Assembly: GCA_044892505.1 (NCBI GenBank)
Contig: CM097882.1
Location: 253,952,001 to 254,016,000 of the forward strand
DNA: 64,000 bases
Source of the DNA: Schmidtea nova
Lineage: Eukaryota
Direction of reading: 5' to 3'
Part shown: in pieces, positions 8,036 through 62,573 of the stretch
Layout of the letters: each line of letters opens with the position of its first letter
Position numbering within the stretch: position 1 is the first letter of the stretch
The notes under the pieces: generated by a model
Told to the model about the DNA's origin: nothing
The model's input: only the letters and a program-made list of their open reading frames with translations
Database searches by the model: none
Made by a program: the position numbers and the translations under genes

Positions 8036-8560
8036 TCAGGTCCTTTCACTGGTTGACTGCATTTCGTATCGGGCTTGGATTTGTCGTAGATGACTTCTCA
8101 TCCTTTGTTGGGTTTTTGCTTCTCTTTTAGCACGTCTACACATTATCGTTTGTTGTTGTTTGAGGCTTCTGATTCGATACAGGGTATACGTGATCACGAT
8201 GATCAAGATGATTGTTAATATCGTCATTGTGACTATTCCGACGATGATCCATCTGTTTCGGATTTCGGATTCGATTTGGGTTTGACCTTTGATTGGCTTT
8301 AGGTGATCTTGAAATGTTCTATGGATTTCTCGGATCTTCTCGATTTGATTGAATAGGGTTTGCAAGGGTTTGCGATGATCATGACTGATTCGCATTTTCC
8401 GGATTAATTGTTTCAAGTCTTCTCTGACTTCATTTAGTTGTTTTTCGATCTCTTGGGATATCTCGTTTGACAGGGTTCTTTGGATTTCGGTTGTCGAATA
8501 GTTCATGATTATTGCAGTTAACATAATCGTTAGGATTGATAGGATTTTGAGCCAGATCAT
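8036..8560 (-). CDS. Accessory 174-aa predicted membrane protein (signal/anchor, coiled-coil ectodomain, TM, basic tail)
   Basis: Hydrophobic N-terminus MIWLKILSILTIMLTAIIM, NYS sequon, heptad region, TM WIIVGIVTMTILTIILIIVITYTLY. Confidence 0.7.
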   Translation of the reverse strand: MIWLKILSILTIMLTAIIMNYSTTEIQRTLSNEISQEIEKQLNEVREDLKQLIRKMRISHDHRKPLQTLFNQIEKIREIHRTFQDHLKPIKGQTQIESEIRNRWIIVGIVTMTILTIILIIVITYTLYRIRSLKQQQTIMCRRAKREAKTQQRMRSHLRQIQARYEMQSTSERT

Positions 8561-8633
8561 TTCTGATTATTCTACTGATTAATACAGGTTACATTGATTT
8601 GTACATTTTTACACACGGATTTTTCGCCTCTTT

Positions 8634-11296: not shown

Positions 11297-11385
11297 TCTA
11301 CAACAATATTTACATCAATTTCCCCATATTTTTGATTTTTCTGGTTCTTTATTTACACGTATTTACACAATTTTCCGCTTATTCA

Positions 11386-42708: not shown

Positions 42709-44575
42709 ACCCCCCCCCCCCCCCCCCGGTAATTAAAAAGTCTTTGTTTGAATTTTTACGCCCACGCATTTCTTTGTGTTTGACTCCACACACCTACCTA
42801 CTTCTGTCAATTAAAATTGAACGATTATTTGTTTAATGAAAACTATATCAATGAATATTATCAATCTACTGCTGATGTTGAAGTGTTTCAAGCATGTTCG
42901 TCAATTAAATACTGCTATTTCCATGCTTTAAGATTGTTTAATCATATCAAACCGTTCTCCGAAGAAGAAAAAGAAATGTGGGTTGTAAAGTTGTGTATCA
43001 ATGCGCTGTTGAGAAGAAAGACCTACAATTTCGTTACTCGAGTGCCAATCGATCAGATCGAATTGATTATTATGAAAGCCATGCCGAAAGAGTTGATTAG
43101 AGGTGGAATTGATGAAGTCAATGAGAAATCGATGCAAAAATGGGTTCAACCGAGAGCTTTGAATATCAGTCAAATCCAAATCATGCAAAAGAATATCGAA
43201 AAGTGGACTATTAAATCCTTAGTTTATATGTATCATTTGACAAGCAACGATGACAGAATATCAATCTTTTCTCACTCAACATTCTGGAGGAGTGCACGGT
43301 TTATCAGTAGAGTAGGGGGAGCGCCCAAGAACAGGAACAGACCCCCCCTAAAAAATTTTTTTTTACCCCCCCCCCAAAAAAAATTTTTTTGTTTAAATAA
43401 AGTGAATTTTTTAAATTTTTTATTTTGTTTAAATTAAGTGAATTTTTAATTTTTAATTTTGTTTAAATGAAGTGAATTTTTTAATTTTAATTTTTTGTTT
43501 AAATGAAGTCGATTTAATTTATTATTTTGTTTAAATGAAGTCTTTATCTTATTTTTATTTATTTTTTAATTATTTTTATTTATTTTTATTTATTTTTATT
43601 TATTTTTATTTATTTTTAATTTTTTTTAATTTATATTTAATTTTTTANNNNNNNNNNNNNNNNNNNNNNNNNNNNNNNNNNNNNNNNNNNNNNNNNNNNN
43701 NNNNNNNNNNNNNNNNNNNNNNNNNNNNNNNNNNNNNNNNNNNNNNNNNNNNNNNNNNNNNNNNNNNNNNNNNNNNNNNNNNNNNNNNNNNNNNNNNNNN
43801 NNNNNNNNNNNNNNNNNNNNNNNNNNNNNNNNNNNNNNNNNNNNTAAATTTAAATTTATTTTTGGNNNNNNNNNNNNNNNNNNNNNNNNNNNNNNNNNNN
43901 NNNNNNNNNNNNNNNNNNNNNNNNNNNNNNNNNNNNNNNNNNNNNNNNNNNNNNNNNNNNNNNNNNNNNNNNNNNNNNNNNNNNNNNNNNNNNNNNNNNN
44001 NNNNNNNNNNNNNNNNNNNNNNNNNNNNNNNNNNNNNNNNNNNNNNNNNNNNNNNNNNNNNNNNNNNNNNNNNNNNNNNNNNNNNNNNNNNNNNNNNNNN
44101 NNNNNNNNNNNNNNNNNNNNNNNNNNNNNNNNNNNNNNNNNNNNNNNNNNNNNNNNNNNNNNNNNNNNNNNNNNNNNNNNNNNNNNNNNNNNNNNNNNNN
44201 NNNNNNNNNNNNNNNNNNNNNNNNNNNNNNNNNNNNNNNNNNNNNNNNNNNNNNNNNNNNNNNNNNNNNNNNNNNNNNNNNNNNNNNNNNNNNNNNNNNN
44301 NNNNNNNNNNNNNNNNNNNNNNNNNNNNNNNNNNNNNNNNNNNNNNNNNNNNNNNNNNNNNNNNNNNNNNNNNNNNNNNNNNNNNNNNNNNNNNNNNNNN
44401 NNNNNNNNNNNNNNNNNNNNNNNNNNNNNNNNNNNNNNNNNNNNNNNNNNNNNNNNNNNNNNNNNNNNNNNNNNNNNNNNNNNNNTTAAAATAATAATAC
44501 TAATATTTCATCACAGTCTAAATAATACAATAAGTAGAAAATAAATAAAAACAAAAAGAAATAAAATACAAATAT

Positions 44576-47500
44576 TTATTGAAATAAATCATCTTCATCT
44601 TCGTCATCTTCTTGAATATCTTCATCTTCGGTAATTGAATCCCCCATAACTGTAAAACTATCTCTACAATGTCCATAAGCAATACTTTTATTTTTCTCAA
44701 CCCAAAGTCTCTTATCATCGAGGTTAGTAAGTGCAATTTTTGAAAACTTATTAGTAAAAATTTGATGATTTTTACTCACAAATCGAGACTGCTCTACTGA
44801 AACTATAGTATTATTTCTATAACAATCAAGATAAGACCGATGCTTCAGTTTAGTATCTTTCAAACAGACGCCTTTAGCCTTTAAACATTCCTTATCACCT
44901 AAAAGACTATAACATTTAGGTCTAAGAAAAACCCATTCCTTATATTTATGACCCTTATTTTCGTCTTTAAACTTTCCTATAACAGAATCAAGTTTTTTCG
45001 AATATAAAGAATGACTAGGGTCGTAATTCGATGTATCCAAAAGACAATCTCTAACCATCGCAGGTAACAGAACATCTAACCTACAATTCTTAATCTCCAA
45101 GAAGAAAGAGTCAGTTTTGCCTGCAACTATATGAATCTCACAGTTGAATTCATTGCGATATTTTTGCAATTCTTCATACTGGAGTTGATACATTCTAAGT
45201 TTAGATAAATCCAGTACAGTTTGACCAATGTAGCTGGGTCTATCTAAACACACAGAGTCCTTATTAAGCAAGACAGAAATTAGGTCATCGTCAATCCTAT
45301 AAGTTTTTCTAAAGGTAGGTTTTGAAGTATATGTAATCAGTTTTGATGCTGAATTACAAAGTCGTAAATATAATCTTTTCTTAAGATTTTCCACAGTTTT
45401 TCCATAAAGACTGTTATTTAAAAGCTTATAAAAATCTTTATCTAAATTAAACGATGAAGCTGCCCTAAGTCGTGTATTCGTATCTATATACTCTTTAAAT
45501 ATAGATTTCTGTTTGTACTGAATAGCCCGATGAACTCGTGTTATTTTAACACCCAAAGAAAGAAATAATTTTAAAAGTCTCCAATGAACAACATAGTTGA
45601 ACTTTGGATAATGTGTCAACATTAACTTTTCAACTTTAGAATTGGGAGCACACATTCTTTCTGCCGCTACTGGAAAGTCATTTAATTTATCATGAATTTC
45701 AACTGGGATTACCAAGTCAACTTCAAATGTTACACCGATTGTTAAAAGTTCCAAGTCGGCATCCATCAAACTAATTAATTTATTTAATTTTTTCACATCA
45801 TTAATCCATTTAAATTTACCACAAGGTAATTTTTGGCTTAAGGCCCAACCGTACAAATTATTAATGTCGATGTAAAGTAGTTCAGTCGTTTCGGAGGATA
45901 CTACATGATGCTTGTTGACAAATGTCAAACCACCACGGATCCCCCCTTCGAAAAAATTATACATCTCCATATCCTGGAGCAACTCAATAGGTTCATCCAA
46001 GGTAAGAAGTGCAGAAGCCCACGACATACCTGGAATACCCAAGAAATTCAATGGTTCTAACCTATTATGAGAAATTGACTTGGCTCTAAACTGTTGGAAA
46101 AAGTCGGCAAGAAGAAAGACGTCAAGTTTAAGGTAGACCATCATGTAGTCACAAAGAGTTTGACAATTAGTTTCCCTCCAAATAACTAATGCCTTGTCGT
46201 ATTCAGCCTGCTTAACACCCTCCCAGATTGGTGGTAATTCATATGTTTCATTCAAGACTTCTAACGATGTTGCAAAATTATAAGGAAAAATACCCTTACA
46301 ATCAACAATAGTACCAGTGAATTCAGATCGCGTTAAAGGTAATGAAGTCAATGTTTTAACCGCATCATTTAAACTGGAGTTAATAAACTGACAAGAGTCA
46401 ATGAATTTAATTGTTAAATCACCGACTCTTGCAGATAAAGTAAGGAATTTTTCACTCGTAGTTGGAATACATGATATTTTCCAAGTTGAAAAGTTTGCCA
46501 ATCCATATTTAAGAATATGGTGCATGTCATACCCTTTTAAATTATGAAATACAACCGGTAGTTCCTTACGAATCTGTCTAGTAAGATTACATTTTAAGCA
46601 AGCAGCACCCAAATATTCACCAGTGTAGTGATCATGGTCTCTGACTGGTTGTACTAAAGTTTTCCTACAGAGATAACAATTTGTAGATGAGGCAAAAGAT
46701 ATTTTATTTTCAAATGTCATAATAAGTGGTTTTTTGAAATTGTTTTTATAAAAAGGAAAAACAATTTCTTCACCTATATTGTTAATTTCAGCAAGAAAAT
46801 TAGTAACGCAATCAAGACCTAAGAAACTCTTGTAAATCTTTTCTCCAGTGAAATTATTTACAAGTAAAAGACCGGCAGATATTGGGACATGTCTTTGAAA
46901 GTACTTATCATCAGCAGGTAAGATTGCCTCAAAATCGGCGTAAACTACAAAAGGTGGAGTAATTGTTTTGCCCCAATTACTAAATGTCAAATAAGGATTT
47001 TTAGGTAAAGTATATAGAGTTGTGCCTAATTGATTTTTAGAACACAACTCTTGATGACGAACAAAAGAATCTTGATATCTAAATCCATTCAAGCATCGAT
47101 GGCACCATAAACTTTGAATACGAGTACCAGATATCGATTTATTGTCAAGATTTAAAAGCCTATCAAGATTGGTTACTGCTATATAATGAAAAGAGTCACC
47201 ATTTTGTAAAAGAATCAAGTTAATAGGGATTCCGTCTACTACTTTCGACCTATAAATTATGTCAATACACGGATGTTTGAAAACTTCAGGCTTAGTGTCT
47301 AGAATTCCAGATTCATCATATGAAAGTACATTAATCGCATATCCCGGGTTTTTAGCTTCAAACTTTGGGATATTGCAAAGACGCATAGGCAAATCAGAAG
47401 GACTAAAGTTAACATCAGAAACATTGTAATTACTGATCCTATGTTTATTTTTACGACCAGATATCTCATCATATTTAATAATTACCAAAACAGAATAGAT

Positions 47501-48463
47501 AAAGCACAAATCATCAGAATTCTGAACATTTACAACACAATGTTTTGACTTTAAAGATTCAGGAGTGTCAATACCACCGTAACCTATCAACCTACTAATC
47601 TCAGAAAATTTGGTTAATATGAAATGAATTTCATTAATTTTATTAATTATCCAGTTACTACCTCTATTATTAATTAATGTAATTTTTTCATTAAGAATAT
47701 TAATGCCATCGTCTATAAAGGTATCTGTGACAGGTTTTGCAGAGTTAGAAATAACTATAGTTTGAAAAGCACCATCTTTTTCAAACTCAACTTCGATGCA
47801 AAATTGAATTTTAACCGTTCCCATCGTTTCAATTACATTATTTAATTTATTAATTAAATTATCAGGTACAAACATGCTTTTTAAATTCAAGTTAGTTACA
47901 ATCATTTTCACTATAGCATGTGATTTATTTAAATCAAATTTAACAACAGGTAAAATGGAACCACCAACCTGTACTTCAGGAACAAAAGAGTATTTATCGT
48001 CAGAAAATTTATCAAAAGAACCACCAATTTGAATATTATCGATAGGATCAAAAGAGTCTACAACCACAAAATCAGAAAGATTATTTAAATCAAGAATGTT
48101 ATCATCATCAGGAATGATATCATTACCAAGAATGTTATCATCATCATCAGAAATTACAACTATATCTGAAGGAACAATCGAATGAACAATTGAAGGATCA
48201 ACTGAAGGAACAACTGAAGAAATATCATCAGAAAGAACAACTGAAGAAATATCATCAGAAAGAACTGACTTGGTAATTTTGATTGGGATTGGACTATTTT
48301 CATTAAATTTTCTTTTAAGCGGTAATTTAAAAATTGATTTTTTAGATGTTTTAAATTGTTCTAAATGATCGCAATGAGTATTGTAAGTCAATATACGAAG
48401 AGGACGAAGTAGATTTGCAAAAAGGACAAATGTAGTAGGTTTTACAGTTATGAGGGTATGCAT
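44576..48463 (-). CDS. polB: Protein-primed family B DNA polymerase (pPolB), 1,295 aa
   Basis: EndoVII-like CYLC...RDHDHYTGEYLGAACLKCN; exonuclease FHNLKGYD, FIDS, KGIFPY, YLKLDV; polymerase YIDINNLYG, KLLNNSLYGK. Motif C reads GKTDS. Start uncertain. Confidence 0.93.
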   Translation of the reverse strand: MHTLITVKPTTFVLFANLLRPLRILTYNTHCDHLEQFKTSKKSIFKLPLKRKFNENSPIPIKITKSVLSDDISSVVLSDDISSVVPSVDPSIVHSIVPSDIVVISDDDDNILGNDIIPDDDNILDLNNLSDFVVVDSFDPIDNIQIGGSFDKFSDDKYSFVPEVQVGGSILPVVKFDLNKSHAIVKMIVTNLNLKSMFVPDNLINKLNNVIETMGTVKIQFCIEVEFEKDGAFQTIVISNSAKPVTDTFIDDGINILNEKITLINNRGSNWIINKINEIHFILTKFSEISRLIGYGGIDTPESLKSKHCVVNVQNSDDLCFIYSVLVIIKYDEISGRKNKHRISNYNVSDVNFSPSDLPMRLCNIPKFEAKNPGYAINVLSYDESGILDTKPEVFKHPCIDIIYRSKVVDGIPINLILLQNGDSFHYIAVTNLDRLLNLDNKSISGTRIQSLWCHRCLNGFRYQDSFVRHQELCSKNQLGTTLYTLPKNPYLTFSNWGKTITPPFVVYADFEAILPADDKYFQRHVPISAGLLLVNNFTGEKIYKSFLGLDCVTNFLAEINNIGEEIVFPFYKNNFKKPLIMTFENKISFASSTNCYLCRKTLVQPVRDHDHYTGEYLGAACLKCNLTRQIRKELPVVFHNLKGYDMHHILKYGLANFSTWKISCIPTTSEKFLTLSARVGDLTIKFIDSCQFINSSLNDAVKTLTSLPLTRSEFTGTIVDCKGIFPYNFATSLEVLNETYELPPIWEGVKQAEYDKALVIWRETNCQTLCDYMMVYLKLDVFLLADFFQQFRAKSISHNRLEPLNFLGIPGMSWASALLTLDEPIELLQDMEMYNFFEGGIRGGLTFVNKHHVVSSETTELLYIDINNLYGWALSQKLPCGKFKWINDVKKLNKLISLMDADLELLTIGVTFEVDLVIPVEIHDKLNDFPVAAERMCAPNSKVEKLMLTHYPKFNYVVHWRLLKLFLSLGVKITRVHRAIQYKQKSIFKEYIDTNTRLRAASSFNLDKDFYKLLNNSLYGKTVENLKKRLYLRLCNSASKLITYTSKPTFRKTYRIDDDLISVLLNKDSVCLDRPSYIGQTVLDLSKLRMYQLQYEELQKYRNEFNCEIHIVAGKTDSFFLEIKNCRLDVLLPAMVRDCLLDTSNYDPSHSLYSKKLDSVIGKFKDENKGHKYKEWVFLRPKCYSLLGDKECLKAKGVCLKDTKLKHRSYLDCYRNNTIVSVEQSRFVSKNHQIFTNKFSKIALTNLDDKRLWVEKNKSIAYGHCRDSFTVMGDSITEDEDIQEDDEDEDDLFQ

Positions 48464-48773
48464 AATATTTTTCCATTAATTCATGGCATTTTACATCATG
48501 AATTGTGGAGTTGCAATATTTTTGATATAAATTGCCTATAAATTTTAAAAATAATATAAAAATAATGATCAAAATAATGATAAAAATAATGATAAAAATT
48601 ATGATAAAAATATTATGATAAAAATTATGATAAAATATCAATGATGTATATCAAGTGTGTATACACACATTCAATTCAAAATATCGTAATGTATATTTAT
48701 TGATTATGATTGGTCAAAATAATTTAAAAATTACTATATAAACGACTTATAAAATTAAAATAATCATTAAAAA

Positions 48774-49302
48774 ATGTATCAACTGAAAAGTAAGATTAAT
48801 TAATTTTAAATGATTATTTTTAAATTTTCTTTTTCTAGAATCGAAAAGAATGTCAAAACAAGAAATAATGAAGATTATACTTGAGGAAAATCCTATTTCT
48901 TCATCTAATTTGGCATTGAATTCACCAGTTCAATTTCTACAATACTCGATGGAGTATTTGAAATATCCAATCAAATATTCATTTAAAGTAATTAATTAAA
49001 AATTATAAAAATCTAATTAATATTATTTACAGGAACCTGTTACATTGAAACAATGTCAATACAATATTCAGGTTGGAAAAATCGGGGAAATTGACAGAAA
49101 GAATCTATCAGAAATTTTAATGCTAATAAATAAAGATATTCAATTCAACGAGGAATTCACATATATGAACTGTAAAAAAGAAACAGATTTATGCAAATTA
49201 GATGAAAATTCAATGTATCAAATTCAAATTATCTTACAAGGATTTAAACAAACCGAAAACGTGATAAAACCTATTTGGAAAATTAATGATTTTCATGAAT
49301 AA
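48774..49302 (+). CDS. Three-exon hypothetical Maverick protein (introns 48790-48838 and 48988-49032)
   Basis: Both GT-AG introns restore one frame MYQLK|KSKRMSKQE...YSFK|EPVTLKQ...FHE*; TATATAAA at ~48735. Confidence 0.6.
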
Positions 49303-49937
49303 ACTCTTGTTTAATTTATTTGTTCTTTATTTGTTTTTAAAAATTGATTTTTACATTAAATATATTTTAAAATAATATATAAATATATCATTTATAAAAT
49401 ATATTTATTATAAAAATTAATTAAATCCATATAAAAATCTATCGATTATTAATTAAATTCATATTATATAAAAATATATCAATTATTAATTAAATCCATA
49501 TTATAATTATTAATTAAATTCATATTATATAAAAATCTATCAATTATAATTATTAATTAAAATCATATAAAAATCTATCAATTAAATTAATTAAATAAAT
49601 TCATATAAAAAATCTATCAATAATAAAAATAAACATTTAATTGATAATATATTTAATTTCGTCAATATATAAATACTTACATTTAAGTATCGATGGTATA
49701 ATTTTCTTTGAAAATTTCATTGGCATAACATTGTTTGGTATAATTTTCATTGGCATAATATTGCTTGGTTTAATTTTCTTTGACATAATATTGTTTGGTA
49801 AAATTTTCTTTGTTGTCATTATTTCAAAATCTGTAAAAAATAAATTAAAAAATATTCATAAAAAATTAAACTTACTTACTTAAGTTGGCTTGTTGTTAAA
49901 AATGTCGTTTATTTAAACGAAATTATTTTAAAATTAA

Positions 49938-50190
49938 TGTAATTTAAAATTAATTAAATATTTTACAATATGTAATTTAAAATTAATTAAATATTTTTAC
50001 AATATGTAATTTAAAATTAATTAAATATTTTTACAATATGTAATTTAAAATTAATTAAATATTTTTACAATATGTAATTTAAAATTAATTAAATATTTTT
50101 ACAATATGTAATTTAAAATTAATTAAATATTTTTACAATATGTAATTTAAAATTAATTAAATATTTTACAATATGCAATTTTAAATTAAT
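49938..50190. repeat. 33-34-bp AT-rich tandem repeat, ~7.5 copies
   Basis: TGTAATTTAAAATTAATTAAATATTTTTACAATA units at 34-bp spacing. Confidence 0.9.
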
Positions 50191-50265
50191 AAATTCAAAC
50201 ATAAAAATTCACTTTTGTATTAGTGAATACCATAAATAGAAAAAGTCGTTTTATAATAAAAAATT

Positions 50266-50644
50266 TTATTTCATATATTTTAGCCAAGCTAAACAATGTT
50301 GCCCACAGGTTTTTGTCATTGGATTTTGATATCGAATTCTGTTATATTCTATTGGTTTTAACATTGACGATAATTTTTTCAATAATATCGGTGGATAATA
50401 AAATCCCATTGGAACAAACACGTATATTTTATCGGGTTTATTATAAATTGCAAGCCAATGTTCGCCTTTGAGATTTGATGATTGAGTATTGACAATCAAT
50501 GCTTTATTCACATCTATATACGGTATTTTATCTAGAGGAAAAACTCCTAGAAATTCTGATCCAATCAATTTTCTAGCAATCTGATCTACCTGAATTGAAC
50601 TAAAATCAATAAAATTTAATTATTTAAAATAAATCTTACTTCAT
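50266..50644 (-). CDS. Adenain-like cysteine protease (PRO), two exons (intron 50600-50639)
   Basis: VNTQSSNLKGEHWLAIY...CGQHC catalytic motifs. The intron GTAAGA...TTTTAG gives the N-terminus MNSIQVDQIARKLIGSEFLGVFP in frame. Confidence 0.85.
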
Positions 50645-50721
50645 TTACTTTTTTAATTAATTAAAATTAGTTTATATTAAACCAATAATTTTCAATTAAA
50701 TCAACAATGTTTGAGCAGAGC

Positions 50722-51948
50722 TCAAACCAGTATTGTTCGATTAGCTGTAATTTGTAATTCCTTTGCAAAAACTCCATATACAATTACAGAAACTGATTCA
50801 GACAATGGTGTACCAAATTTAATATCAAGTCTTAAATTACCTTGTTGTGGTAATTGACTTTGATTTAGGTCAAAATCTGGAGCCAAAACGAAGGTGAAAA
50901 AAGGATATTTACTTTTCCAATCTGCTAAAGTAATACCGCAATTCATACTCTTATTCAGGTAACCAAGGTTACGGACAATAGATTGCATATAACTAGTACT
51001 ACAATTATCATTTTCAAAATCTTGAGAATATTTTTCACGATAATCACTTCCTTTTGATAAAGTTAATGATTTGACATTAAAATGATCGTAAATAGAATAA
51101 GTTTCAGTAAAAGAACCACTATGTCTTTTATTTCCTTGAAATGCTACAAGAATAAAGTTTGGTAATCGTCTATCGCCAAAGATTTGTTCCTTATAAAACG
51201 AAGAAGAACCCATTGGCAATGAAAATTCTACAACTTCCTTATTTCTTATTGGATAAATTGCATTTCTTGTACCAAGTCCAATTTGATGCCCAGCATAAAC
51301 TGATGGTTCTACTCGAACTCTTCTAACCATTAATTTTGCCTCTAATAATTCAATTATAGGTTCAATTTTTGTACATGTTAAACTATTGGATGGATTTGAT
51401 CTCGTCAATTTAATTTGAACACTAACACCTGGTAATAAATACTTGGGCTGTTCCATGAAATCGAAATGTAATGGAGAACAAATTGAAAATGGTTTTGATT
51501 TTGCAATCCATGCTTTTCTAGTAAGATCATGGTCATTGTATCCCATTGGAGTTAAAGATGTGTGTTTTGTATCACTATTGTAGTTGAGAATAGTTTCAAT
51601 CATGGCTTTGTGTGTAAATGTATCATTTCCCCCTTCAACTTTAGTAGAATTGAAAATTAATTCTGCTTCTTTAAAAAGAGTTTGGAAAAAGAAATTGTTG
51701 GGAGTAACATCAGCATCCAATCCTAAATTTTCACCCGATTTGTTTACAACTTTGACCTGAAGAGATAGTAAAGTATCGTTCAAATCTAAATATTCAGTTT
51801 GAGATCCATTGATGTAAAATTGAATAGATGATGTCCCAGCATCTGTAATTGAATTTGTTGGGTAAATATCTTCAAAGGCACCATGTTCAGTTACTGCTTG
51901 TGGAGATGGTCTATCAAAAAGACATAATTCAGATTTTGCACTAATCAT
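50722..51948 (-). CDS. Major capsid protein (double jelly-roll, Maverick MCP)
   Basis: KSELCLFDRPSPQ...IYPTNSI...IQFYING...YLDLNDT, LPNFILVAF, GNLRLDIKF, typical of Maverick MCP. Confidence 0.88.
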   Translation of the reverse strand: MISAKSELCLFDRPSPQAVTEHGAFEDIYPTNSITDAGTSSIQFYINGSQTEYLDLNDTLLSLQVKVVNKSGENLGLDADVTPNNFFFQTLFKEAELIFNSTKVEGGNDTFTHKAMIETILNYNSDTKHTSLTPMGYNDHDLTRKAWIAKSKPFSICSPLHFDFMEQPKYLLPGVSVQIKLTRSNPSNSLTCTKIEPIIELLEAKLMVRRVRVEPSVYAGHQIGLGTRNAIYPIRNKEVVEFSLPMGSSSFYKEQIFGDRRLPNFILVAFQGNKRHSGSFTETYSIYDHFNVKSLTLSKGSDYREKYSQDFENDNCSTSYMQSIVRNLGYLNKSMNCGITLADWKSKYPFFTFVLAPDFDLNQSQLPQQGNLRLDIKFGTPLSESVSVIVYGVFAKELQITANRTILV

Positions 51949-52352
51949 TTTTCAAATATTGTTCCATATCCTTTCATTCTTTTGTTTATATGTTTCTTCA
52001 TATTTCTTTTTCGTTTAAGAATTCCGCCATTTTGTTTATTTTCAGTTTTATTTTCGTTAAACACATCAGTCACTTTACTAATTACTTGTGGCAAATGATG
52101 AATCACATCGGGCAATGAGTCTTTAATTTCAGAAATGGCATTGGATTTTAGTGCAGGTAAAATCTTTGAATTATTATTTAACACATCATTGGCAGTTTTC
52201 ATACCAAAATTTCCAATACGTCTAAGAATTGGTAATGCAAATCTACCTATCGTTTTCAACCAACCAGTTCCATATTGCTTACCTACAAAATACGGTAATT
52301 CTCCACCTGATTGGCTGTTGCTATAGAAACTGATAATATCTGGATTATTCAT
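51945..52352 (-). CDS. Small Maverick virion/core-type protein (QxGG / QYGxG motifs; PW-like)
   Basis: SQSGGELPYFVGKQYGTGWLKTIGRFALPILRRIG and a basic C-terminus; adjacent to MCP as in Mavericks. The family name is tentative. Confidence 0.65.
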   Translation of the reverse strand: MNNPDIISFYSNSQSGGELPYFVGKQYGTGWLKTIGRFALPILRRIGNFGMKTANDVLNNNSKILPALKSNAISEIKDSLPDVIHHLPQVISKVTDVFNENKTENKQNGGILKRKRNMKKHINKRMKGYGTIFEK

Positions 52353-53367
52353 TTATTTTACGGAAATGTAATGTCAAGTAAGTTTTGTCTTCTTTTGCAA
52401 ATTTAACTATTTTTCCACTGTCATCACGAATATTGATTTCAATATTGTTTATATATGTGGAACTGACCGGTAAATACATTGGATTTTTCTCAACAATTTG
52501 AACCAAATCACCCTTTTTATGTTTTTCAACCCAAACACATTTCAATAGGGGAACTGACATGTCCCCAACAAGAATTGGTTGAATAATATTCGTATAGATG
52601 AACATTTGCTGATGAAGTTTTAAAACTTGTGGATAATATACGCCATCAATAATTTTGTCAAAGAATTCTTGTTCAACTAATCCTAACGAATTTGCTAAAT
52701 TCCTACTAAATTTTACACTAGTTATATCATCTTCAAGAATTAATTTAATTAATTTTCCTTCTTTAATATCAATCACTTTAAATGGATGTGGATAAAAAGT
52801 TTCAATTTGATCAGATAATTCAGCAAGATTATTTATTATTAAATCGTCTTTGAAATTATCTGTGTATTCAACAGGATAAGTATAAGTTATAGTAAATCGT
52901 ATAGTATCATCAAGTTTTTTATTTTCATTTGCTGGAATTTTAATTTTGTTTAATTCATCATTAAATGTCACAGATTTTTCTTGAAACCCTAATTTTGTAG
53001 CTTCATCAACACTATCAAATATTATTTGAAATGGAAAATATTTACAATTTACATTTAAAATATTGCCATCAATATACATTAAATAATAATTAGAATCGTG
53101 ACTTATATCATATTCTTTCTTTTGTTGGTTAAAATTGAAATATTCATAACTAGAATGTAATTCATTTCTAGTAAATTTTATACTTGAACTATTATAAAAT
53201 GGAAATTCATTGTACACAAAAGTAAAATCCATAAGAGCAACTTCCCAACTACCATCCAAATAAATAGGGTTTTGATATTCAACATTGAATTTTCCAGCTT
53301 TATTATTGGGATGTGTCAATGGACAAGAATTGCTTGGTAAATTTACATAAAAATCTTTTTTAATCAT
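52345..53367 (-). CDS. Minor capsid protein (penton) paralog 1
   Basis: FYVNLPSNS...WEVALMD at the N-terminus; MFIYTNII...VGDMSVPLL...NPMYLPV...IEINIRDDSG at the C-terminus. Confidence 0.88.
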   Translation of the reverse strand: MIKKDFYVNLPSNSCPLTHPNNKAGKFNVEYQNPIYLDGSWEVALMDFTFVYNEFPFYNSSSIKFTRNELHSSYEYFNFNQQKKEYDISHDSNYYLMYIDGNILNVNCKYFPFQIIFDSVDEATKLGFQEKSVTFNDELNKIKIPANENKKLDDTIRFTITYTYPVEYTDNFKDDLIINNLAELSDQIETFYPHPFKVIDIKEGKLIKLILEDDITSVKFSRNLANSLGLVEQEFFDKIIDGVYYPQVLKLHQQMFIYTNIIQPILVGDMSVPLLKCVWVEKHKKGDLVQIVEKNPMYLPVSSTYINNIEINIRDDSGKIVKFAKEDKTYLTLHFRKINE

Positions 53368-54397
53368 TTATTTTACGAAAATGTAGAGTCAAATGAGTCT
53401 TTGTATCTTTTGAAAATTTAATTAATTTTCCACTGTCATCACGAATATTGATTTCAGTGTTGTTTATAGTTGATGTTGAAATCGGTAAATACATTGGATT
53501 CTTTATTTCAATTTGTACAACTTCGCCTTGGTCATATTTCTTGATCCAAATTGATTTAAGGAGGGGAACTCGTACATCTCCAACAGTTACTGGTTCAATA
53601 ATGTTGCTGTAAATGAACATTTGCTGATGAAGTTGTAAAATTTTGGGGATTTTTACACCAATTATTTCTGTATCAGTATATGTTTGTTTCTGTAGACCCA
53701 GAGATTTGGTTAAATTTGAATCAAAAGTAATTTTTGAAATATTATCCTGAAGAATAATTTTAACCAATTCATTATTGACAAGTTTCAATTCTTTAGATGG
53801 AGATGGATTAATTTTCATTAAATATCCTTGTAATTCCGGTAATGACGTTATGAATAATTCATCTTGAAAATAATAATCATTAACAGTTTTAATGTCATAA
53901 TTTATTAAAATTCCAAATTGTTCAAGACTATTATCATTCGTGAATTTTGGTAATTTTAAACGACAATGGTCATTTTCATTTGTAATCGATATATTTTCCA
54001 ATCCAAAACTTTTTGCATGTTCAATATCTGGAAATGTAATTTTAAATGGAACATGTGGGCAAACAATCTCTAAATAATTATATTTTTCAATAAATACATC
54101 AGTGTCTGAACTAGGTCGAGAAACTATAACTTGAATTGTTTTATTTTGATTATTAATTCTCAAATAACTAATTTCTTGAATTTCTCTTTTAGTTTCAATT
54201 TGAATAAAAGAATTACTATAATACGGGAACAAATTATACACAAAAGTAAAAGCAATCAAAGCAACTTCCCAATCGTCATTACTATTTAAATAAATCGGAT
54301 TTTGAAATTCTACATTAAAATTACTAGCTTCATTATTAGGATAAATAAGAGGACATGCATTGCTAGGCAAAATCATATAAAACTGGTTTTCTTTCAT
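53360..54397 (-). CDS. Minor capsid protein (penton) paralog 2
   Basis: FYMILPSNA...WEVALIA; MFIYSNII...VGDVRVPLL...NPMYLPI...EINIRDDSG. Confidence 0.88.
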   Translation of the reverse strand: MKENQFYMILPSNACPLIYPNNEASNFNVEFQNPIYLNSNDDWEVALIAFTFVYNLFPYYSNSFIQIETKREIQEISYLRINNQNKTIQVIVSRPSSDTDVFIEKYNYLEIVCPHVPFKITFPDIEHAKSFGLENISITNENDHCRLKLPKFTNDNSLEQFGILINYDIKTVNDYYFQDELFITSLPELQGYLMKINPSPSKELKLVNNELVKIILQDNISKITFDSNLTKSLGLQKQTYTDTEIIGVKIPKILQLHQQMFIYSNIIEPVTVGDVRVPLLKSIWIKKYDQGEVVQIEIKNPMYLPISTSTINNTEINIRDDSGKLIKFSKDTKTHLTLHFRKIND

Positions 54398-54402
54398 AAT
54401 AT

Positions 54403-55488
54403 TTATTTAATCAATTGTTTTTCAGATATCCAACTTGGAGTTTCATAGCCATGCCATTTAACGTAATATTGTTTATATTTCCCATCAGTTTTGGTTTTTA
54501 AAATCTTTTGAATTCTAAAAACTGTGGGAGCTGGAATAACTTGAAGTTCTTGTTCGTAGAATTTACCCTCGATTACATTGTTTTCATGATCGGAAATAGT
54601 ATACATGACAGGATTTTGATTAGTATCAACATTTGAGATTTGATATACTTCATCACTCCAATTACTATCAAAATTTTTGATGAATGGAGAAGCACTGATT
54701 TTACTCATTCTCACATAATCGCTTACTTTATATTTCGGTTTTTTATTAATTGATTTTAATCTATCTTTTATCCATCCATCAAAATTATTATTTGAATATA
54801 CATCGATAGGTTTCATTCTATTTAATCCCGAATGCGGTGAACGATTGTAACTGGAAATAATTTTCGGTAAAACATTTATCCATGTTTTGTTACCTTGATA
54901 CACAAAAAACTTTTTCAAACGATCTCTTAAAGTTCGATTAAATCTTTCAACATGAGCAGCTTTGAATTGAGAAAATACAGAATAATGATTGATTCCTTTG
55001 ATCACTTCTTTTACTTTGCTGTTATAAAACTCTTTTCCTAAATTAAAATTAATTAATTTTTAAAAATTTAATTTCTTACCCAAATCAGTTTGTAAATTAC
55101 GTGGCTTCCCATCTTTAAATAAAGATTCAATAGCCTCAGCCATTTCATTAGCAGATTTAGTTTTTGTTGGAATAGCTCGTGCATAACGGCTAAAAACATC
55201 AATACAAGTCAAAATATATTTGTAACCCTTGTTAATTTTAGAATAAGGAATCATTTCCATCAAATCCATTTGCCATAAATCGTTACCCCCAAAAGTTTTA
55301 TATTTCCGTGTAGGAAATCTTTTCAACATTGGTTTATTTAAACTATATGCCAATTGATCAGATAGCCATTTCTGAGTTTCATTCTTTGAACTTTTTATTC
55401 TTTTTGCCAATTTTTTGACTGAACCAAAACCATCGGGATCTTTTGGGTTTGTCCATATCGTTTTTATATTCTTCATGATTTTCTTCAT
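54403..55488 (-). CDS. int: Retroviral-type (rve) integrase with C-terminal chromo-like domain, two exons (intron 55038-55079)
   Basis: WQMDL, CIDVFSR; the spliced junction gives LQTDLG|KEFYN; AAHVERFNRTL; YYVKWHGY. The 42-nt GTAAGA...TTTAG intron joins ORFs 55060..55488 and 54403..55005 in frame. Confidence 0.9.
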
Positions 55489-55550
55489 TAATACAACAAT
55501 TTGTTAAAATATTTAAATCTATATTATGTTTATTCGGTTCAGAAATTTTA

Positions 55551-55880
55551 TTACCCATTTCTTAAAGATGAGATTGCGCTTATTGCTGATAATACTATTG
55601 GAATTAATGTACCGAGAAACCCACCCTTTTGTTTATATATTATTTTTCGCATAAGATTTCTATTTTTGGTATTCACTAATGATAAAAGCGAATTTTTATG
55701 TTTTTGTAGTTCAATTTTCTTTGATCTACTAATATTTACATTACCATGAACAATATTAAAAACGATTTCAAGTAAATCATCAATAACAAAGGGTGGGAAA
55801 GCTTGTAAAATTATCATTCGCTTATTTGTTGGAGCTTTAACCAAAGCATTAAAATACGGTAAACTACGTTCAAATTTCAT
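55551..55880 (-). CDS. Conserved Maverick small protein with QKGG|FLGTLIPIVLSAI amphipathic tail
   Basis: LEIVFNIVHGNV...KQKGGFLG pattern, which I recall from Maverick core ORFs. Confidence 0.7.
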   Translation of the reverse strand: MKFERSLPYFNALVKAPTNKRMIILQAFPPFVIDDLLEIVFNIVHGNVNISRSKKIELQKHKNSLLSLVNTKNRNLMRKIIYKQKGGFLGTLIPIVLSAISAISSLRNG

Positions 55881-55910
55881 GATTAAAATTTTTGTTTATA
55901 TTTATTTCGT

Positions 55911-56072
55911 TTATAATTTTATCCACTTCTTTACTTGTTTCTTTCTTTTACCAATCTTTTTGACAACTTTTTTAACTAATTTAGATTTTTGATCAACTTT
56001 TTTAAGAAGTTTTTGATCAGCTTTTTGAACAGCTTCTTTATTTAACTTGACAATTACTTTTTTAAATGACAT
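55911..56072 (-). CDS. 53-aa Lys-rich protein (not in ORF track), candidate DNA-condensing protein
   Basis: Manual translation MSFKKVIVKLNKEAVQKADQKLLKKVDQKSKLVKKVVKKIGKRKKQVKKWIKL*; fills the gap between ATPase and the next gene. Confidence 0.55.
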   Translation of the reverse strand: MSFKKVIVKLNKEAVQKADQKLLKKVDQKSKLVKKVVKKIGKRKKQVKKWIKL

Positions 56073-56093
56073 TACTATTTCTTTTATTTATTT

Positions 56094-56717
56094 TCAATTT
56101 TGTTTATAAACCGTGACTCCATTTTCGTTAAATATATCCGTTCGGATGCGTAAATCATCAGGACATTGTTGAGTAAAATCAAAGAATAAATATCCATGAG
56201 GAACTTTAGTAGTATCTTGAAATGAATTAATTAAGAATTTCCTATCATTAGGGTAAGCTTGTCTTGCTAGAAAATCAATAATTGTAGCATCTCTTGGGTT
56301 TTTGAATATAACCAAGTATTGAACATTTAAATTACGAGTTCTGTGACTACCACCTTGATGAAATAAATTTTGAGTAATGAAAATTACAGTAACTCCTAAA
56401 TGTCTACTAATTTTTGTGAATAAATTATTAAAATCTTTTTCTTTATTTGCTTCTTGGTACAAATCATCGATAATTATAACATCGCCTTGACGTAATCTAG
56501 ATGACCAGTTTTTATCAAACCCTTTTATAATTGTCATTTTTAATTTACAGAATTGATCTTGAGTCAGTCCATGTTCTTCATCAGCTCCCCGATGCCAGTA
56601 AATTTTATTGAATTTAGATTTAAACATTTTTGATTGCAACAATTTACATACAAATAGTGTTTTTCCACTACCACTTGGGCCCACTATTTGATAAACTGCA
56701 TCATTTCTTAATTCCAT
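56094..56717 (-). CDS. A32/FtsK-like packaging ATPase
   Basis: Walker A GPSGSGKT, Walker B IIIDD, ISRHLGVTVIFITQNLF. Confidence 0.92.
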   Translation of the reverse strand: MELRNDAVYQIVGPSGSGKTLFVCKLLQSKMFKSKFNKIYWHRGADEEHGLTQDQFCKLKMTIIKGFDKNWSSRLRQGDVIIIDDLYQEANKEKDFNNLFTKISRHLGVTVIFITQNLFHQGGSHRTRNLNVQYLVIFKNPRDATIIDFLARQAYPNDRKFLINSFQDTTKVPHGYLFFDFTQQCPDDLRIRTDIFNENGVTVYKQN

Positions 56718-56776
56718 TTTTAATTAATTAATTATTAATTAATTTAATATTGTTTATATTTATTCGATTTATAAAA

Positions 56777-57259
56777 ATGATAAGTAATATTAATTATATG
56801 GGCAAGTGTTTAGTTCCAAACATGATATTTCCTGTTGGAAAACCCCAGCAAGTTATAGATAGGAGTGGAAAGTACCCTATTTTATTTTTCAGATCGGGAA
56901 AATGTCGTGTAATGGGTTGTAAGCAACCGTTAAAACCAGATGATTTGAAATATAAAATTTCCGATTTAAAAATTCAATCGATCACTATAACATTGGATAT
57001 GGGTAAATCCATAAATTTATACGAATTGCAAAATAAAACAGAGTGCTGGTACGAACCCGAAATATTTCCAGCTTTAAGATTAATAAATTATAACCCTATT
57101 TGTATTAATATTTTTTCAAGTGGAAAAGTTGTAATATTAGGAATTAAAACATTGGATTATTTTAATCAAGTAAATGAAATTAAAAATTATATTAATTCAT
57201 TAATCAATAATGAATTAATTGATGAAAAATATCTCGATTTATTATTTAATTTTGTTTAA
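56777..57259 (+). CDS. TBP-like: TATA-binding-protein-like protein (160 aa from ATG 56777)
   Basis: Repeat 2 YEPEIFPALRL...INIFSSGKVVILGIK matches TBP YEPELFPGLIY...LIFVSGKVVLTGAK; repeat 1 LFFRSGKCRVMGCK matches LIFSSGKMVCTGAK. Confidence 0.85.
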   Translation: MISNINYMGKCLVPNMIFPVGKPQQVIDRSGKYPILFFRSGKCRVMGCKQPLKPDDLKYKISDLKIQSITITLDMGKSINLYELQNKTECWYEPEIFPALRLINYNPICINIFSSGKVVILGIKTLDYFNQVNEIKNYINSLINNELIDEKYLDLLFNFV

Positions 57260-57294
57260 ATACATTGTTATTTTACAAATCCATATTTTTGAAA

Positions 57295-57680
57295 ATGTCT
57301 AAAAGTAAGTATTATTTTTAATTAACTATATTATTAATATTTTTTATTTAGCTTATTTATTTGAAGTGGTCCTGAAGAAAATTCAAGAATTATATCCAAA
57401 AATAAAAGATTCTTTGGATTATTGTGCGCCAGAGTTATTGGTTCATAAGATATACAAGCTTACTGGGATCAATATCGAACAATTGCTCGAGATTCACTAC
57501 GATATGGTTCTTGGAGCTGGAGTCAAGTGCATTGAAAATTGCATAGTTTGCAATGATTCACTAAGAGTATCCTGTGTAAACGGATGTGCATGCTGCCATG
57601 ATTTTAAAAGAGATCATTCGGTGCATATCTTAATGTCAGAAATGCGTAAAGCATATTATAACGACATTTATAATTTATAA
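57295..57680 (+). CDS. Two-exon Cys-rich hypothetical protein (intron 57305-57351)
   Basis: The GTAAGT...TTTAG intron gives MSK|TYLFEVVLKK in frame with ORF 57366; CIENCIVC, CVNGCACCHD. Confidence 0.6.
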
Positions 57681-58080
57681 TAAAGTTTTGTGATTTAGTT
57701 GTTCTTTATTTCATAATTTTTCAAAGTTTTGTGATTTAGTTGTTCTTTATTATTTTCAAAGTTTTTTCAAAGTTATTATTATTTTTCTAAGTTTTTTCAA
57801 AGTTTATTATAATTATNNNNNNNNNNNNNNNNNNNNNNNNNNNNNNNNNNNNNNNNNNNNNNNNNNNNNNNNNNNNNNNNNNNNNNNNNNNNNNNNNNNN
57901 NNNNNNNNNNNNNNNNNNNNNNNNNNNNNNNNNNNNNNNNNNNNNNNNNNNNNNNTATTATTATTTTAAAAATTTTTCTAAGTTTTTATTATTATTATTA
58001 TTATTTTAAAAATTTTTCTAAGTTTTTTCTAAGTTAATAATTATTATTATTATTATAATTATTATTATTATTATTATTAA

Positions 58081-58119
<39 letters not shown>

Positions 58120-58179
58120 CATAATTATCTTTTTTCACCTTTGATCTTTTTTTATTATTATTATCAATAATTCTCATAA

Positions 58180-58349
58180 TGACTATAGATCAAAATTTTT
58201 TTTTATAAACAATAACACAATATTTCGGCACAGCCTTTATCAAGTGTGTATTTCTTGTACACACTTGTGTATTTCTTGTACACACTTGATAAAGGCTGTG
58301 CCGAAATATTGTGTTATTGTTTATAAAAAAAAATTTTGATCTATAGTCA
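58180..58349. repeat. Perfect 71-bp inverted repeat with 28-bp spacer, ending at an N gap
   Basis: Arms 58180-58250 and 58279-58349. Confidence 0.8.
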
Positions 58350-59618
58350 NNNNNNNNNNNNNNNNNNNNNNNNNNNNNNNNNNNNNNNNNNNNNNNNNNN
58401 NNNNNNNNNNNNNNNNNNNNNNNNNNNNNNNNNNNNNNNNNNNNNNNNNNNNNNNNNNNNNNNNNNNNNNNNNNNNNNNNNNNNNNNNNNNNNNNNNNNN
58501 NNNNNNNNNNNNNNNNNNNNTATTATTATTCAAACTGAACCAAAAATATAAAAATTAATTTAAATTTAAAAAAATTAAAATAAATATAAATTATTAAAAA
58601 TAAATAAATTAAAAATAAATATTAATTAAAATAAATATAAATTAAAAATTAATTTAAATAAATAAATAAATATAAATTATTAAAAATAAATTAAAAATAA
58701 ATATTAATTAAAAATAAATTAATTAATAAAAATAAATTATTAAAAATAAATTAAAAATAAATATTAATTAAAAATAAATTAATTAATAAAAATAAATTAT
58801 TAAAAATAAATTATTAAAAATAAAAAATTAAATATAAATTAANNNNNNNNNNNNNNNNNNNNNNNNNNNNNNNNNNNNNNNNNNNNNNNNNNNNNNNNNN
58901 NNNNNNNNNNNNNNNNNNNNNNNNNNNNNNNNNNNNNNNNNNNNNNNNNNNNNNNNNNNNNNNNNNNNNNNNNNNNNNNNAAAATAATAAATTAAATTGA
59001 CTTCATTTAAACAAAAAATTAAAATTAAAAAATTCACTTCATTTAAACAAAATTAAAAATTAAAAATTCACTTAATTTAAACAAAATAAAAAAATTTTAA
59101 AAATTCACTTCATTTAAACAAATTTTTTTGGGGGGGGTAAAAAAAATTTTAGGGGGGAGGGGGGTCTGTTCCTGTTCTTGGGCGCTCCCCCTACTCTACT
59201 TTTATCTTAACGGCAACGCTTGCTACAAATTTTAAATTATCAGAAACATATGGTAGCAGAGTGTGGTTCCCTTGTGGGAGCCACGCTAGAATTCAGAAAA
59301 TGATGGCCCAGGTGAGGGGGCCTTTAAGAAATTTCGATCCTCACCAGGAAAAAGGTCTCTTTTATTTTATTATGAATAATATTAATGACAAGGACCGATG
59401 TCCTCAATGCAAAGAGATTCTTAAATGCCGGAGATAATGCCGAGTTACCGATATTGGCAAACCAGATATTAGCAGGTATGATTACAATTTGCCATGATGC
59501 GATTTTTGGAATTTATTTTAATAAAATATATTGTGATAGGGTATTATTTTTGCCATATAAAGGCAGCCCCCGTAATGGGCCCCGGAGGTTGTCATGTGAT
59601 ACCTTACACCCAAATTAT

Positions 59619-59846
59619 ATACAAATATTTGTAAAGACATTAAGTGGCAAAGTTGTTACAGTCCAAATAAAATTAAATTCCTCAATACACGACCTTAAAA
59701 GGATAATCTTTAGAAAAGAAGGGATTCCCATTAAAATTCAAAATTTAATTCATGGGAGGAAACATCTGTTAGGGGACACAAAATTGAAGGATCATGGAAT
59801 TAAACATGGTTCCACAGTCCAAGTGTTAATGGGTTTAAAGGGAGGA
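59619..59846 (+). other. 76-aa ubiquitin-like domain ending LKGG, in frame upstream of BEL Gag
   Basis: IQIFVKTLSGK...KEGIP...LKGG; about 31/76 identities to ubiquitin by hand count. Confidence 0.92.
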
Positions 59847-59924
59847 AGTAATGAAAATGAATTTTTCGGAGGATTACTGGAGGTATCAAAGAGAAAGAAT
59901 AGGTTGACAAGAAGTAGGAATTAG

Positions 59925-62573
59925 GTGAAGATGGCGTTAGGTAAGGATAATTGCAATGAAATATATTTACAATACTACGAGGAGTATGAAAAGGCATTAG
60001 AAGATTTTGCAAAGTTAAGAATATTAGGTGAAAGATTGGGAAAGGAAAGTGAGGTGAAAAAGCTTACCAAAGATATTTTGGAGTTGGAAAAGAAAGGTGA
60101 GGATTTAGATGAACGAATCGATCGTTTTACAGAAGTAAAAGTTGAACCACAGACCTCAGCTTATAAAACGGAGGAACATGGTCCAACTCTAAGTAAGATG
60201 AAAAAATTGTCGATACCAGTTTTTAATGGTAAGTTGAAAGAATATAGAACTTGGAGAGCTGCCTTTGAAGTAAGTATCAATAAAGCAATTGGATCCAAGG
60301 AAGAAAAGCTTCAACATCTACGTCAATATTTAGCAGGGGAAGCATTAAAACTAATTGAAAATTTAGATCACACAGCTAAAGCTTATGATTCAGCGCTTGA
60401 ACAACTGGAGATTAATTATGGAGGGGACGACCGTGCTTATAGGAGTCTTTTACAGGAATTAGAAAGATTTAGATTATTAAGAGAAGGTCAGGTAAAAAAC
60501 ATGGAATTGTTGATACAATTGACGGAAACACTGATTGTGAGTTTGGAAGATATGGGCAGACAAAGCGAACTTGGAAGGAGTTTCATATATGAGAAGTTAA
60601 TCCAGCAATTAACTGAAGCCATGTTGGATGAGTGGATGATTGTATCTTCGAACATAGAAGACCCAGAGAAAATAGGAGTGAAAGGCCTTCGGGAATGGTT
60701 GCAAAAGAAATTGCAAAGAACTAAACAGATCTTTGAGATAAAAAGAGGTAGTGAATCATTAAGGAAAACTTTTGAAGACCGAAGGAATTTTAACACTGGA
60801 TCTCAAACCCAAAAGCTCAGGTCTCACGTGCAGATTAGTGAAGACAATGAAGGGTCATTTAATAAAACTGGATGTTTCAATTGTGGAGGCAATCATTTTA
60901 AAAGTCAATGCCCAGCTTTTAAGAAATTGAAGAAAGATAAATTGGTTTGTTTGATACGTACAGAAGAGCATTACATTAATCAGTGCAAGAAGTTCAAAGA
61001 AATGACTCAGGAACAAAGATTGAACAAGGCCAAAGAATTAAAGTTATGTTTTAATTGTCTCAAGAACAACCATATTGTCAAGAATTGTAAAAAGGAAAAG
61101 ATGTGTAAAGTAGACGGATGCACAAAAAAGCATAATTATTGGTTACATAACTTTTCAACTCTAAAGGCTCCAGAAAAGCAAGTAACATTAATGGGAATCG
61201 GGAAGAAACAAGTCAAAAATTCAACAAAATGGTTCAGTTTGAGAACTGTTCCTATTATCTTAGAGAGTAATGGCAAACAATTATTTGTGAACGCACTGTT
61301 AGACGATGCTAGCACGGCAAGCTTTGTAAGCGAAAGAGTTGCATCAGAAGTGAACCTCGATGGAGGCGATATAAATACAACGATAAAGGTTATTGGTGGA
61401 AGAACTGAGGGAATACCAGCTCAAAGTGTTGAAATGATCCTGAAGGATACTGGAGGGAAAATAGTTAAAATATTTAAAGCATTGGCTCTTAGATCAATTA
61501 CAAGGAATATGAAAGTAATTGATTGGACAAAAGTAGCTCACTCGTGGCCTCATTTAAAGGGAATTCCGTTCCCGTCCTTATATGGAAAGCAGACAGTTGA
61601 CGTCTTGATTGGAGTAGATTATTTAGACCTCCATAGAACTATTGAAGAAATTACTGGAAATGAAAATGAACCTATTGCAAGACGCACGCCATTAAGGTGG
61701 ACTTGTATAGGTGGACCAGGAATTATGATGCCATTAAATCACCAGACAAATTTTGTGCGTGCTTACTTTATTAAGGAAGGAAATATAAATTATCAGATTC
61801 AGAAATTCTGGGAGCTTGAGGAAGTTCAAGAAACCCCAATCGCACTTTCAACAAAAGATAAATTAATTATGGATGAAACAAAAAATCAATTAAGTTATAA
61901 AGATAATAGATATGAAGTTAGTTTGCCTTGGAAAAAAGAAAGACCAGAATTGGTTGTAAATAGAAACATGGCAGAAAACAGATTGAAAAGTTTACAAGAA
62001 CGATTTAGTAAAGATGTAATATTAAAAAAGGAGTATTCAGAAGTAATAGCAGAACATGAAAGAAAAGATTATATAAGGGAAATTACTAAGGCAGAGGAAT
62101 CCGAAAATAAATGGTTGTTACCACACTTCCCAGTTATAAAAAGAGATAGAGAATCGACAAAAATAAGAATTGTGTTTGACGCAGCTGCCAAAAATTGGGG
62201 AACTTGTTTGAATGATATAATAGAAACAGGGCCAAAATTACAAAACGACTTGTTTGATGTTTTGCTACGGTTTAGGAAACATAGAATTGCAATCGTATGC
62301 GATATTGCCGAAATGTTTTTGCAAATAGCAGTGGCTAAGGAAGATAGGAAATATTTGAGATTTTTATGGCAAGATGAAGCCAAAATTAAAGTTTTTGGAT
62401 TTAATAGATTAGTGTTTGGAATAAATGCCTCTCCGTACTTAGCACAGTATGTGACTCAAGAGAATGCAGGAAATTTAGAGAATAAATTTCCAAGAGCTGT
62501 TGAGACAGTTATTAAATCCACTTACATGGACGATAGTTTAGATTCCGTGGAATCGGAGGTAGAGGCATTTTAG
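59925..62573 (+). pseudogene. BEL/Pao Gag-PR-RT segment
   Basis: IPVFNGKLKEYRTW, KLQHLRQYLAGEA, CFNCLKNNHIVKNC, LPHFPV, YMDD; bounded by in-frame TAGs. Confidence 0.88.

Follow-up and report, generated by a model that had tools for sequence, protein, structure and literature searches.

Mavericks, or Polintons, are usually described as DNA elements whose core genes are uninterrupted open reading frames (ORFs). For vertebrates, the available part of PMC8097293 (Barreat and Katzourakis 2021) describes intact copies as free of introns, citing Kapitonov and Jurka (2006), and takes intronless ORFs as the mark of an intact element. In nematodes, according to the portion at hand of Widen et al. (10.1101/2022.07.12.499685), the core genes have no introns, which occur only in cargo genes of host origin, and viral genes are assumed to be free of introns in the accessible text of PMC9356565. 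This general description, from which the sequence-only reading of the present locus had started, is borne out by the three sources as far as they could be consulted. Intervening sequences of other kinds are mentioned in the excerpts seen of three further works: introners inside full-length Maverick-Polinton-like elements of dinoflagellates (PMC11957031), group I introns in polinton-like viruses (PMC12220804), and one to four introns, mostly GT-AG, in the Gypsy-like integrase genes of Ginger1 (Bao et al. 2010, PMC2836005). The element analysed here lies at 43306-59200 of a 64,000-nucleotide stretch of the planarian Schmidtea nova (contig CM097882.1, positions 253,952,001 to 254,016,000), the whole of which is called the window below. 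It is a complete Maverick with terminal inverted repeats (TIRs), a 6-bp target-site duplication (TSD) and genes for protein-primed polymerase (pPolB), integrase, protease, ATPase and capsid, and several of these genes appear to be split by minimal spliceosomal introns.

The same TIRs, 6-bp TSD and gene set are found in the vertebrate Mavericks, which are intronless, whereas in the window element the integrase (INT), the protease (PRO) and probably pPolB are intron-split. The nematode elements share the core genes and also contain introns, but in cargo genes and not in core genes as here. The dinoflagellate elements likewise carry intron-like insertions within full-length Maverick-like elements; however, those introners are transposon-derived families in protists, mostly inserted after integration, while the window introns are unrelated to one another, minimal, AT-rich, free of repeats, located in an animal host and apparently fixed in a lineage. 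Ginger1 is also a DNA transposon with an intron-bearing integrase, but it is a cut-and-paste element of a single gene, with neither polymerase nor capsid. Adenoviruses have a related protease and a protein-X-like gene, as the window element does; being nuclear DNA viruses, they have their transcripts processed by the host spliceosome, but they have no integrase, and possess long alternatively spliced units instead of minimal introns. The usual description of intronless core ORFs, which is not a strict criterion, does not hold for the window Maverick. The element type is already known and the novelty lies in the intron-split core genes. The literature searched, whose reach did not extend to Repbase, the two founding papers or PMC12721341, contained no account of an animal Maverick with spliceosomal introns in its core genes, and no further case appeared in the available parts of PMC10748475, PMC8502044, PMC11296320, PMC11244446, PMC10680173, the Halocafeteria preprint and PMC4040987. 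The introns are considered next within the genes that contain them. Repbase holds Schmidtea Polinton entries, possibly annotated with exons.

Six short segments with GT-AG ends are present at exactly the coordinates predicted by the sequence-only reading. Two of them interrupt ORF-L (48774-49302, plus strand; exons 48774-48789, 48839-48987 and 49033-49302), a gene for a protein without a named family: intron 1 of 49 nt at 48790-48838 and intron 2 of 45 nt at 48988-49032. A further 49-nt segment (49831-49879, minus strand, with a tandem alternative donor at 49875) would lie in a 5' untranslated region (UTR), probably that of the pPolB transcript. The adenain-like cysteine protease gene (50266-50644, minus strand; exons 50640-50644 and 50266-50599) contains a 40-nt segment in its second codon (50600-50639), and the integrase gene (54403-55488, minus strand; exons 55080-55488 and 54403-55037) a 42-nt, phase 1 segment (55038-55079) that immediately follows the second catalytic Asp motif. 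The sixth, of 47 nt (57305-57351), falls in the fourth codon of the Cys-rich ORF-R (57295-57680, plus strand; exons 57295-57304 and 57352-57680). Four of the six are thus located in the 5'UTR or within the first six codons.

The segments have a GC content of 7-12%, versus 26-33% in the exons, and begin with GTAAG in five cases and GTAAT in one; all end in YAG. The extended donor consensus and the pyrimidine-rich 3' end that characterize U2-type introns were found in every one of them, all are oriented along the coding strand with one common consensus, and all hold stop codons in the three frames. The exons keep a consistent phase with no internal stop in the four coding genes, so that removal of the coding introns restores the frame, as had been proposed, giving 348 (INT), 113 (PRO), 145 (ORF-L) and 113 (ORF-R) codons including the stop. 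A strand-blind scan of 44486-57816 for such micro-introns returned five loci (six donors) under strict rules and six loci (eight donors) under relaxed ones, against local shuffle means of 0.03-0.06 and 0.6-1.0, respectively; in five settings of 300 shuffles each, no shuffle reached the observed count. Because the introns were already known when the thresholds were set, the scan is a supporting consistency check without a clean p-value. Similar AT-rich intergenic stretches inside the element yielded no such matches, and the window outside the element, which may hold no host genes, gave none either.

Homologous proteins fix several of the borders independently. Among the 120 integrase homologues listed of 438 matches, to which all integrase counts refer, exactly one residue, Gly, stands between the exon edges in 78 of the 78 that could be scored; the remaining 42 had an edge beyond the limits of the local alignment or a low exon-1 score. 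A separate motif check found the junction motif contiguous in 116 of the 120. The length of the integrase intron keeps the frame, but the segment carries an in-frame stop. In the protease, the first Met of exon 2 (Met 64) comes after the catalytic His (His 47), the N-terminus predicted through the 5-nt first exon is reached by 8 of 10 homologues, and three homologues start with residues matching exon 1 and the beginning of exon 2. ORF-L has four matches, among them P0252 (1983 aa), and three of the four were retrieved; both of those spanning intron 2 show no extra residues at the junction. Hence, the fit to uninterrupted homologues could be examined at three of the six introns (INT, PRO and ORF-L intron 2) and was found at all three. 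Homology leaves these borders a slide of one base at most in each direction, and they fall on GTAA(G/T) and YAG. At the DNA level, both integrase and protease are uninterrupted at these sites in L005 (JANOGQ010000345.1), a syntenic Maverick on a stray contig in a bacterial metagenome-assembled genome (MAG). As close kin lack the segments at the same sites, the segments are gains. Taken together, signals, phase and junctions indicate that the six are very probably real introns.

Intervening sequences of other origins were also considered. An introner family is ruled out, since only 2 of the 15 intron pairs are nominally similar and the other 13 are unremarkable against shuffles, and an introner origin is also excluded by junction repeats of one base at most on each side. 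Group I or II self-splicing introns are ruled out by the lack of Rfam matches in 43300-59210 and by the size of the segments, merely 40-49 nt.

The age of the gains was approached through the nearest relatives. In an integrase tree of 52 rows, for which the window sequence was combined with the 45 closest and the 6 most remote of the 120 homologues, the window integrase groups with P0009, P0040 and P0001, to which it is 73-78% identical, at support 100/97. The junction is missing in all three of these relatives versus 1 of the 117 other integrases. Likewise, in the nearest relatives of the protease (P0121, 81%) and of ORF-L (P0251, 57%) the protein starts only downstream of these introns. Such late starts are what ORF callers give when a stop-bearing intron lies upstream, and the pattern suggests an old gain of the integrase intron, common to the lineage. 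A scan of genome contigs with the integrase alignment gave 28 pattern matches, none of them confirmed, and a contig scan with pPolB gave 26 loci, all distant (27-57% in their best segments) and none in the clade of the window element.

We consider it likely that minimal U2-type introns were gained by the core genes of a Maverick lineage, probably of dugesiid planarians, and were inherited while the lineage was active. The integrated element would be transcribed in the nucleus by host RNA polymerase II, the host spliceosome would remove the introns, and an intron gained in one copy would pass to its descendants, since Maverick replication goes from DNA to DNA and involves no reverse transcription that would eliminate it. 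This mode of replication is established for Polintons according to the available part of PMC6431247. The integrase intron seems older than the divergence of the clade, in which case the lineage would have stayed active while carrying it. The four introns located in the 5'UTR or within six codons of the start may be tolerated, or even favoured as aids to expression or export, although this is speculative. As to how the introns arose, our guess would be filler left by DNA repair or the conversion of AT-rich DNA into introns. Three lesions unrelated to the introns would later have been picked up by this copy or been introduced by assembly.

Several observations weigh against this explanation. The evidence for splicing comes from DNA sequence, and three of the six introns (ORF-L intron 1, ORF-R and the 5'UTR intron) are backed by signal and, where coding, phase, with no homologue to support them. 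Four of the six introns have a branch-point-like YTRAY motif at -15 to -20, but the position of such motifs is inconsistent and AT-rich DNA readily yields them; the minimal intron size of planarians could not be confirmed from the portion seen of PMC4040987. The clade members are known as proteins, so that contig ends, frameshifts or gene-caller errors could account for their truncation; P0001 is a chimeric gene model, and a more distant protease (P0125) and a distant integrase (P0066) are truncated too. Finally, the copy bears three lesions independent of the introns, namely a frameshift in pPolB, a substitution in its motif C and a substitution in the protease triad, and the presence of introns here is by itself no proof of activity.

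The condition of the copy differs from gene to gene. Among 86 conserved columns the integrase exons show no deviation. Of the 32 such columns in the protease one is altered, where residue 62 of exon 2 is non-acidic at an acidic column of the catalytic triad; this column is common to 9 of 10 homologues in pairwise alignments and to 10 of 10 with MAFFT, and it aligns with an acidic residue of the adenovirus protease which we take to be the triad member. pPolB deviates at 1 of 145 conserved columns (residue 1116, in motif C), common to 118 of 118 homologues; the five pPolB homologues tested in the same manner deviate at 0-2 columns, so that only the position in motif C is noteworthy. The proposal that INT and PRO are probably functional despite their apparent breaks accordingly survives for the integrase and not for the protease, and an extension to the copy as a whole is not supported either, given the lesions in pPolB and protease. 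This copy is probably non-autonomous, partly decayed, or represented by a gapped assembly that holds errors; from its sequence, full function appears unlikely.

The introns might be spliceable but acquired after integration of this copy, or within a dead subfamily, the active family being intronless. The three lesions and the 116 contiguous integrase homologues would agree with such a history, and most introners in dinoflagellate Maverick-like elements were inserted after integration, as stated in the part available of Gozashti and Corbett-Detig (PMC11957031). The copy is nevertheless young, as judged from TIRs identical at 207 of 215 positions, an exact TSD, long intact ORFs and an integrase without deviations, and six or seven gains in so short a time would be implausible without an introner, the introns not forming one family. 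Since the three nearest integrases also lack the junction, a late acquisition is in our estimation quite improbable. Still less credible is the proposal that the segments are AT-rich insertion mutations, produced by repair filler or slippage, that inactivate the genes and merely look like introns. Much AT-rich, low-complexity DNA exists in the element, it was their GT-AG ends that had drawn attention to the segments, and the scan thresholds are post hoc; but the borders of INT, PRO and ORF-L intron 2 were set independently by homology and fall exactly on splice signals, and comparable AT-rich intergenic stretches give no matches.

A different proposal would add to the inherited-intron explanation without excluding it. 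The integrase intron might serve as a regulated switch, whose retention would yield a 142-amino acid (aa) integrase devoid of the catalytic Glu and the chromodomain, so that host splicing, for instance linked to Piwi-interacting RNAs (piRNAs), would gate mobility. A parallel would be the Drosophila P element, whose mobility is gated by host splicing control. The integrase intron is the sole one inside a catalytic core, it contains an in-frame stop and it is apparently conserved across the clade, and Polintons are targets of SMEDWI-2 and piRNAs in Schmidtea according to the excerpt seen of PMC8532177. In-frame stops are, however, to be expected in any AT-rich intron, and we give a switch of this kind only a slim chance.

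A seventh intron, absent from the earlier list, probably exists at the 5' end of pPolB. The main ORF of this gene (44576-48463, minus strand, 1295 aa; Pfam DNA_pol_B_2, PF03175, E 3e-31) is preceded in another frame by a zinc-finger-like segment (48351-48535, minus strand), and the N-termini of homologues match the two frames consecutively, upstream of and within the main ORF. Of the 10 homologues scored, 9 have a spacing of 2-5 residues between the two pieces, and 7 nt separate them in the window; by this comparison, the frame change at about 48386-48392 is a frameshift in the N-terminal zinc-finger-like segment. An intron as its cause is ruled out by the 7-nt gap and the lack of splice signals. 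No start codon is present in the upstream piece, which is preceded by an AT-rich acceptor at 48536. Three donors would be compatible in phase with a long intron, of which only that at 49680 (GTAAGT) has the consensus of the element; combined with the acceptor it would define a phase-consistent intron of 1145 nt (48536-49680, minus strand) enclosing ORF-L on the opposite strand. A weaker alternative donor lies at 48666. The candidate first coding exon (49681-49819, minus strand) comprises 46 repetitive, basic codons and could alternatively belong to a separate 60-aa ORF ending at 49637. All 7 homologues of sufficient length, which were chosen by hand, align a Cys close to the split codon, whereas pairwise mapping puts it exactly there in only 2 of 5.

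L005 shows a comparable arrangement. In its region 7800-9000 (plus strand) there are only two GTAAG donors, both of which connect in phase an exon with C2H2 fingers (Pfam E 7e-7) to pPolB, and the predicted GTAAGT introns at 8349-8830 have lengths of 67 and 157 nt and a GC content of 20-28%. L005 would thus be an independent case of introns predicted in a Maverick core gene. It resembles the window element in synteny, in a TATA-binding-protein (TBP)-like gene and in the apparent introns at the pPolB 5' end, and differs in its uninterrupted INT and PRO, its single minor-capsid-like gene and its longer introns; ORF-L has no match to the ORF of L005 in the equivalent position. In locus L015 the C2H2 fingers lie within the pPolB ORF itself. 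Among the 16 of the 26 pPolB loci that were checked, a convincing spliced 5' end was found only in L005, the other loci having been covered by donor listing; the strict micro-intron scan gave no matches in all 26, with thresholds that exclude the longer introns of L005. A Maverick-like pPolB is present on most of the GTDB MAG contigs L001-L025, accompanied on several by an integrase, and these contigs probably represent eukaryotic or viral contamination of bacterial bins.

We regard it as slightly better than an even proposition that one lineage of animal Mavericks depends on host splicing for its integrase, protease and polymerase alike and remained active through more than 20% integrase divergence, that L005 is an independent instance, and that both belong to a recurring, overlooked class. 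If so, intron-bearing Mavericks would be regularly scored as dead by ORF surveys and would offer a living parallel to adenovirus splicing. Where intactness is judged by intronless ORFs (PMC8097293) or introns are skipped (PMC9356565), counts of active elements would be biased; ORF-only pipelines can miss or misjudge such copies, and database proteins may be truncated by unrecognised introns, as seems to be the case for the nearest relatives. The introns would also place transcription in the nucleus, which argues against the need for a cytoplasmic helper virus, and they would provide datable gains with known intronless sister sequences.

The remaining features complete the element. Its length of 15.9 kb is inside the range of 15-25 kb given for Polintons in the part consulted of PMC6431247. 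The left TIR (43306-43530, plus strand) starts with AGTAG and its inner end is masked by N gaps; the right TIR (58981-59200, minus strand) also ends internally at an N gap. Both begin with an AG-rich tandem motif and they are flanked by identical TSD hexamers at 43300-43305 and 59201-59206. The protease matches Pfam Peptidase_C5 (E 4e-4), and its profile the adenovirus protease (E 6e-7). A 408-aa ORF (50722-51948, minus strand) would encode a double jelly-roll major capsid protein: the best fold matches of its low-confidence model (predicted local distance difference test, pLDDT, 54) are viral major capsid proteins, while the capsid alignment retrieved nothing useful from the sequences of the PDB and the single-sequence fold reached a pLDDT of only 33. 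It is followed by a conserved 135-aa ORF (51945-52352, minus strand; homologue in L005, E 8e-16) and two tandem paralogues of 340 and 345 aa (52345-54397, minus strand), 45% identical and represented by a single copy in L005, presumably minor capsid (penton) proteins from their position and size. The integrase is of retroviral type with a C-terminal chromodomain (Pfam rve, rve_3 and Chromo). Beyond it lie an ORF with an adenovirus protein X (mu)-like motif (55551-55880, minus strand; Adeno_PX, E 1e-5), an A32-like packaging ATPase (56094-56717, minus strand; Pox_A32, E 1e-6) and the TBP-like gene (56777-57259, plus strand; Pfam TBP, E 6e-17), 40% identical to that of L005; in the adintovirus paper (PMC8502044, seen in part) the legend of one figure also names TBP-like genes. 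ORF-R gave no Pfam or Atlas match.

The Maverick is inserted in an ORF whose halves, 42784-43305 and 59207-59437, share one stop-free frame; downstream of this ORF lie another, ubiquitin-like one and a BEL/Pao polyprotein (59376-63851). A giant Burro-like Gypsy element with long terminal repeats (LTRs) occupies 4545-31395; its 3287-nt LTRs are 99.97% identical and its insertion is very recent. A single ORF of 5085 aa contains zf-CCHC, a chuvirus-like fusion protein, protease, reverse transcriptase, RNase H, integrase and ankyrins, and a separate RING/TRAF/MATH ORF is found at 9884-11314. The description of Burro in the available part of PMC6431247 fits, but the MATH ORF is located downstream of ORF1 here and upstream there. 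This neighbour is the reason for regarding a dugesiid planarian as the probable host. An inverted match of 75-80% between 3-1059 and 18199-19255, within the Burro-like ORF, points to a second, related retroelement at the window start. A perfect 71-nt inverted repeat at 58180-58349 lies beside an N gap and is perhaps an assembly artefact; its core resembles a palindrome near 48650-48670.

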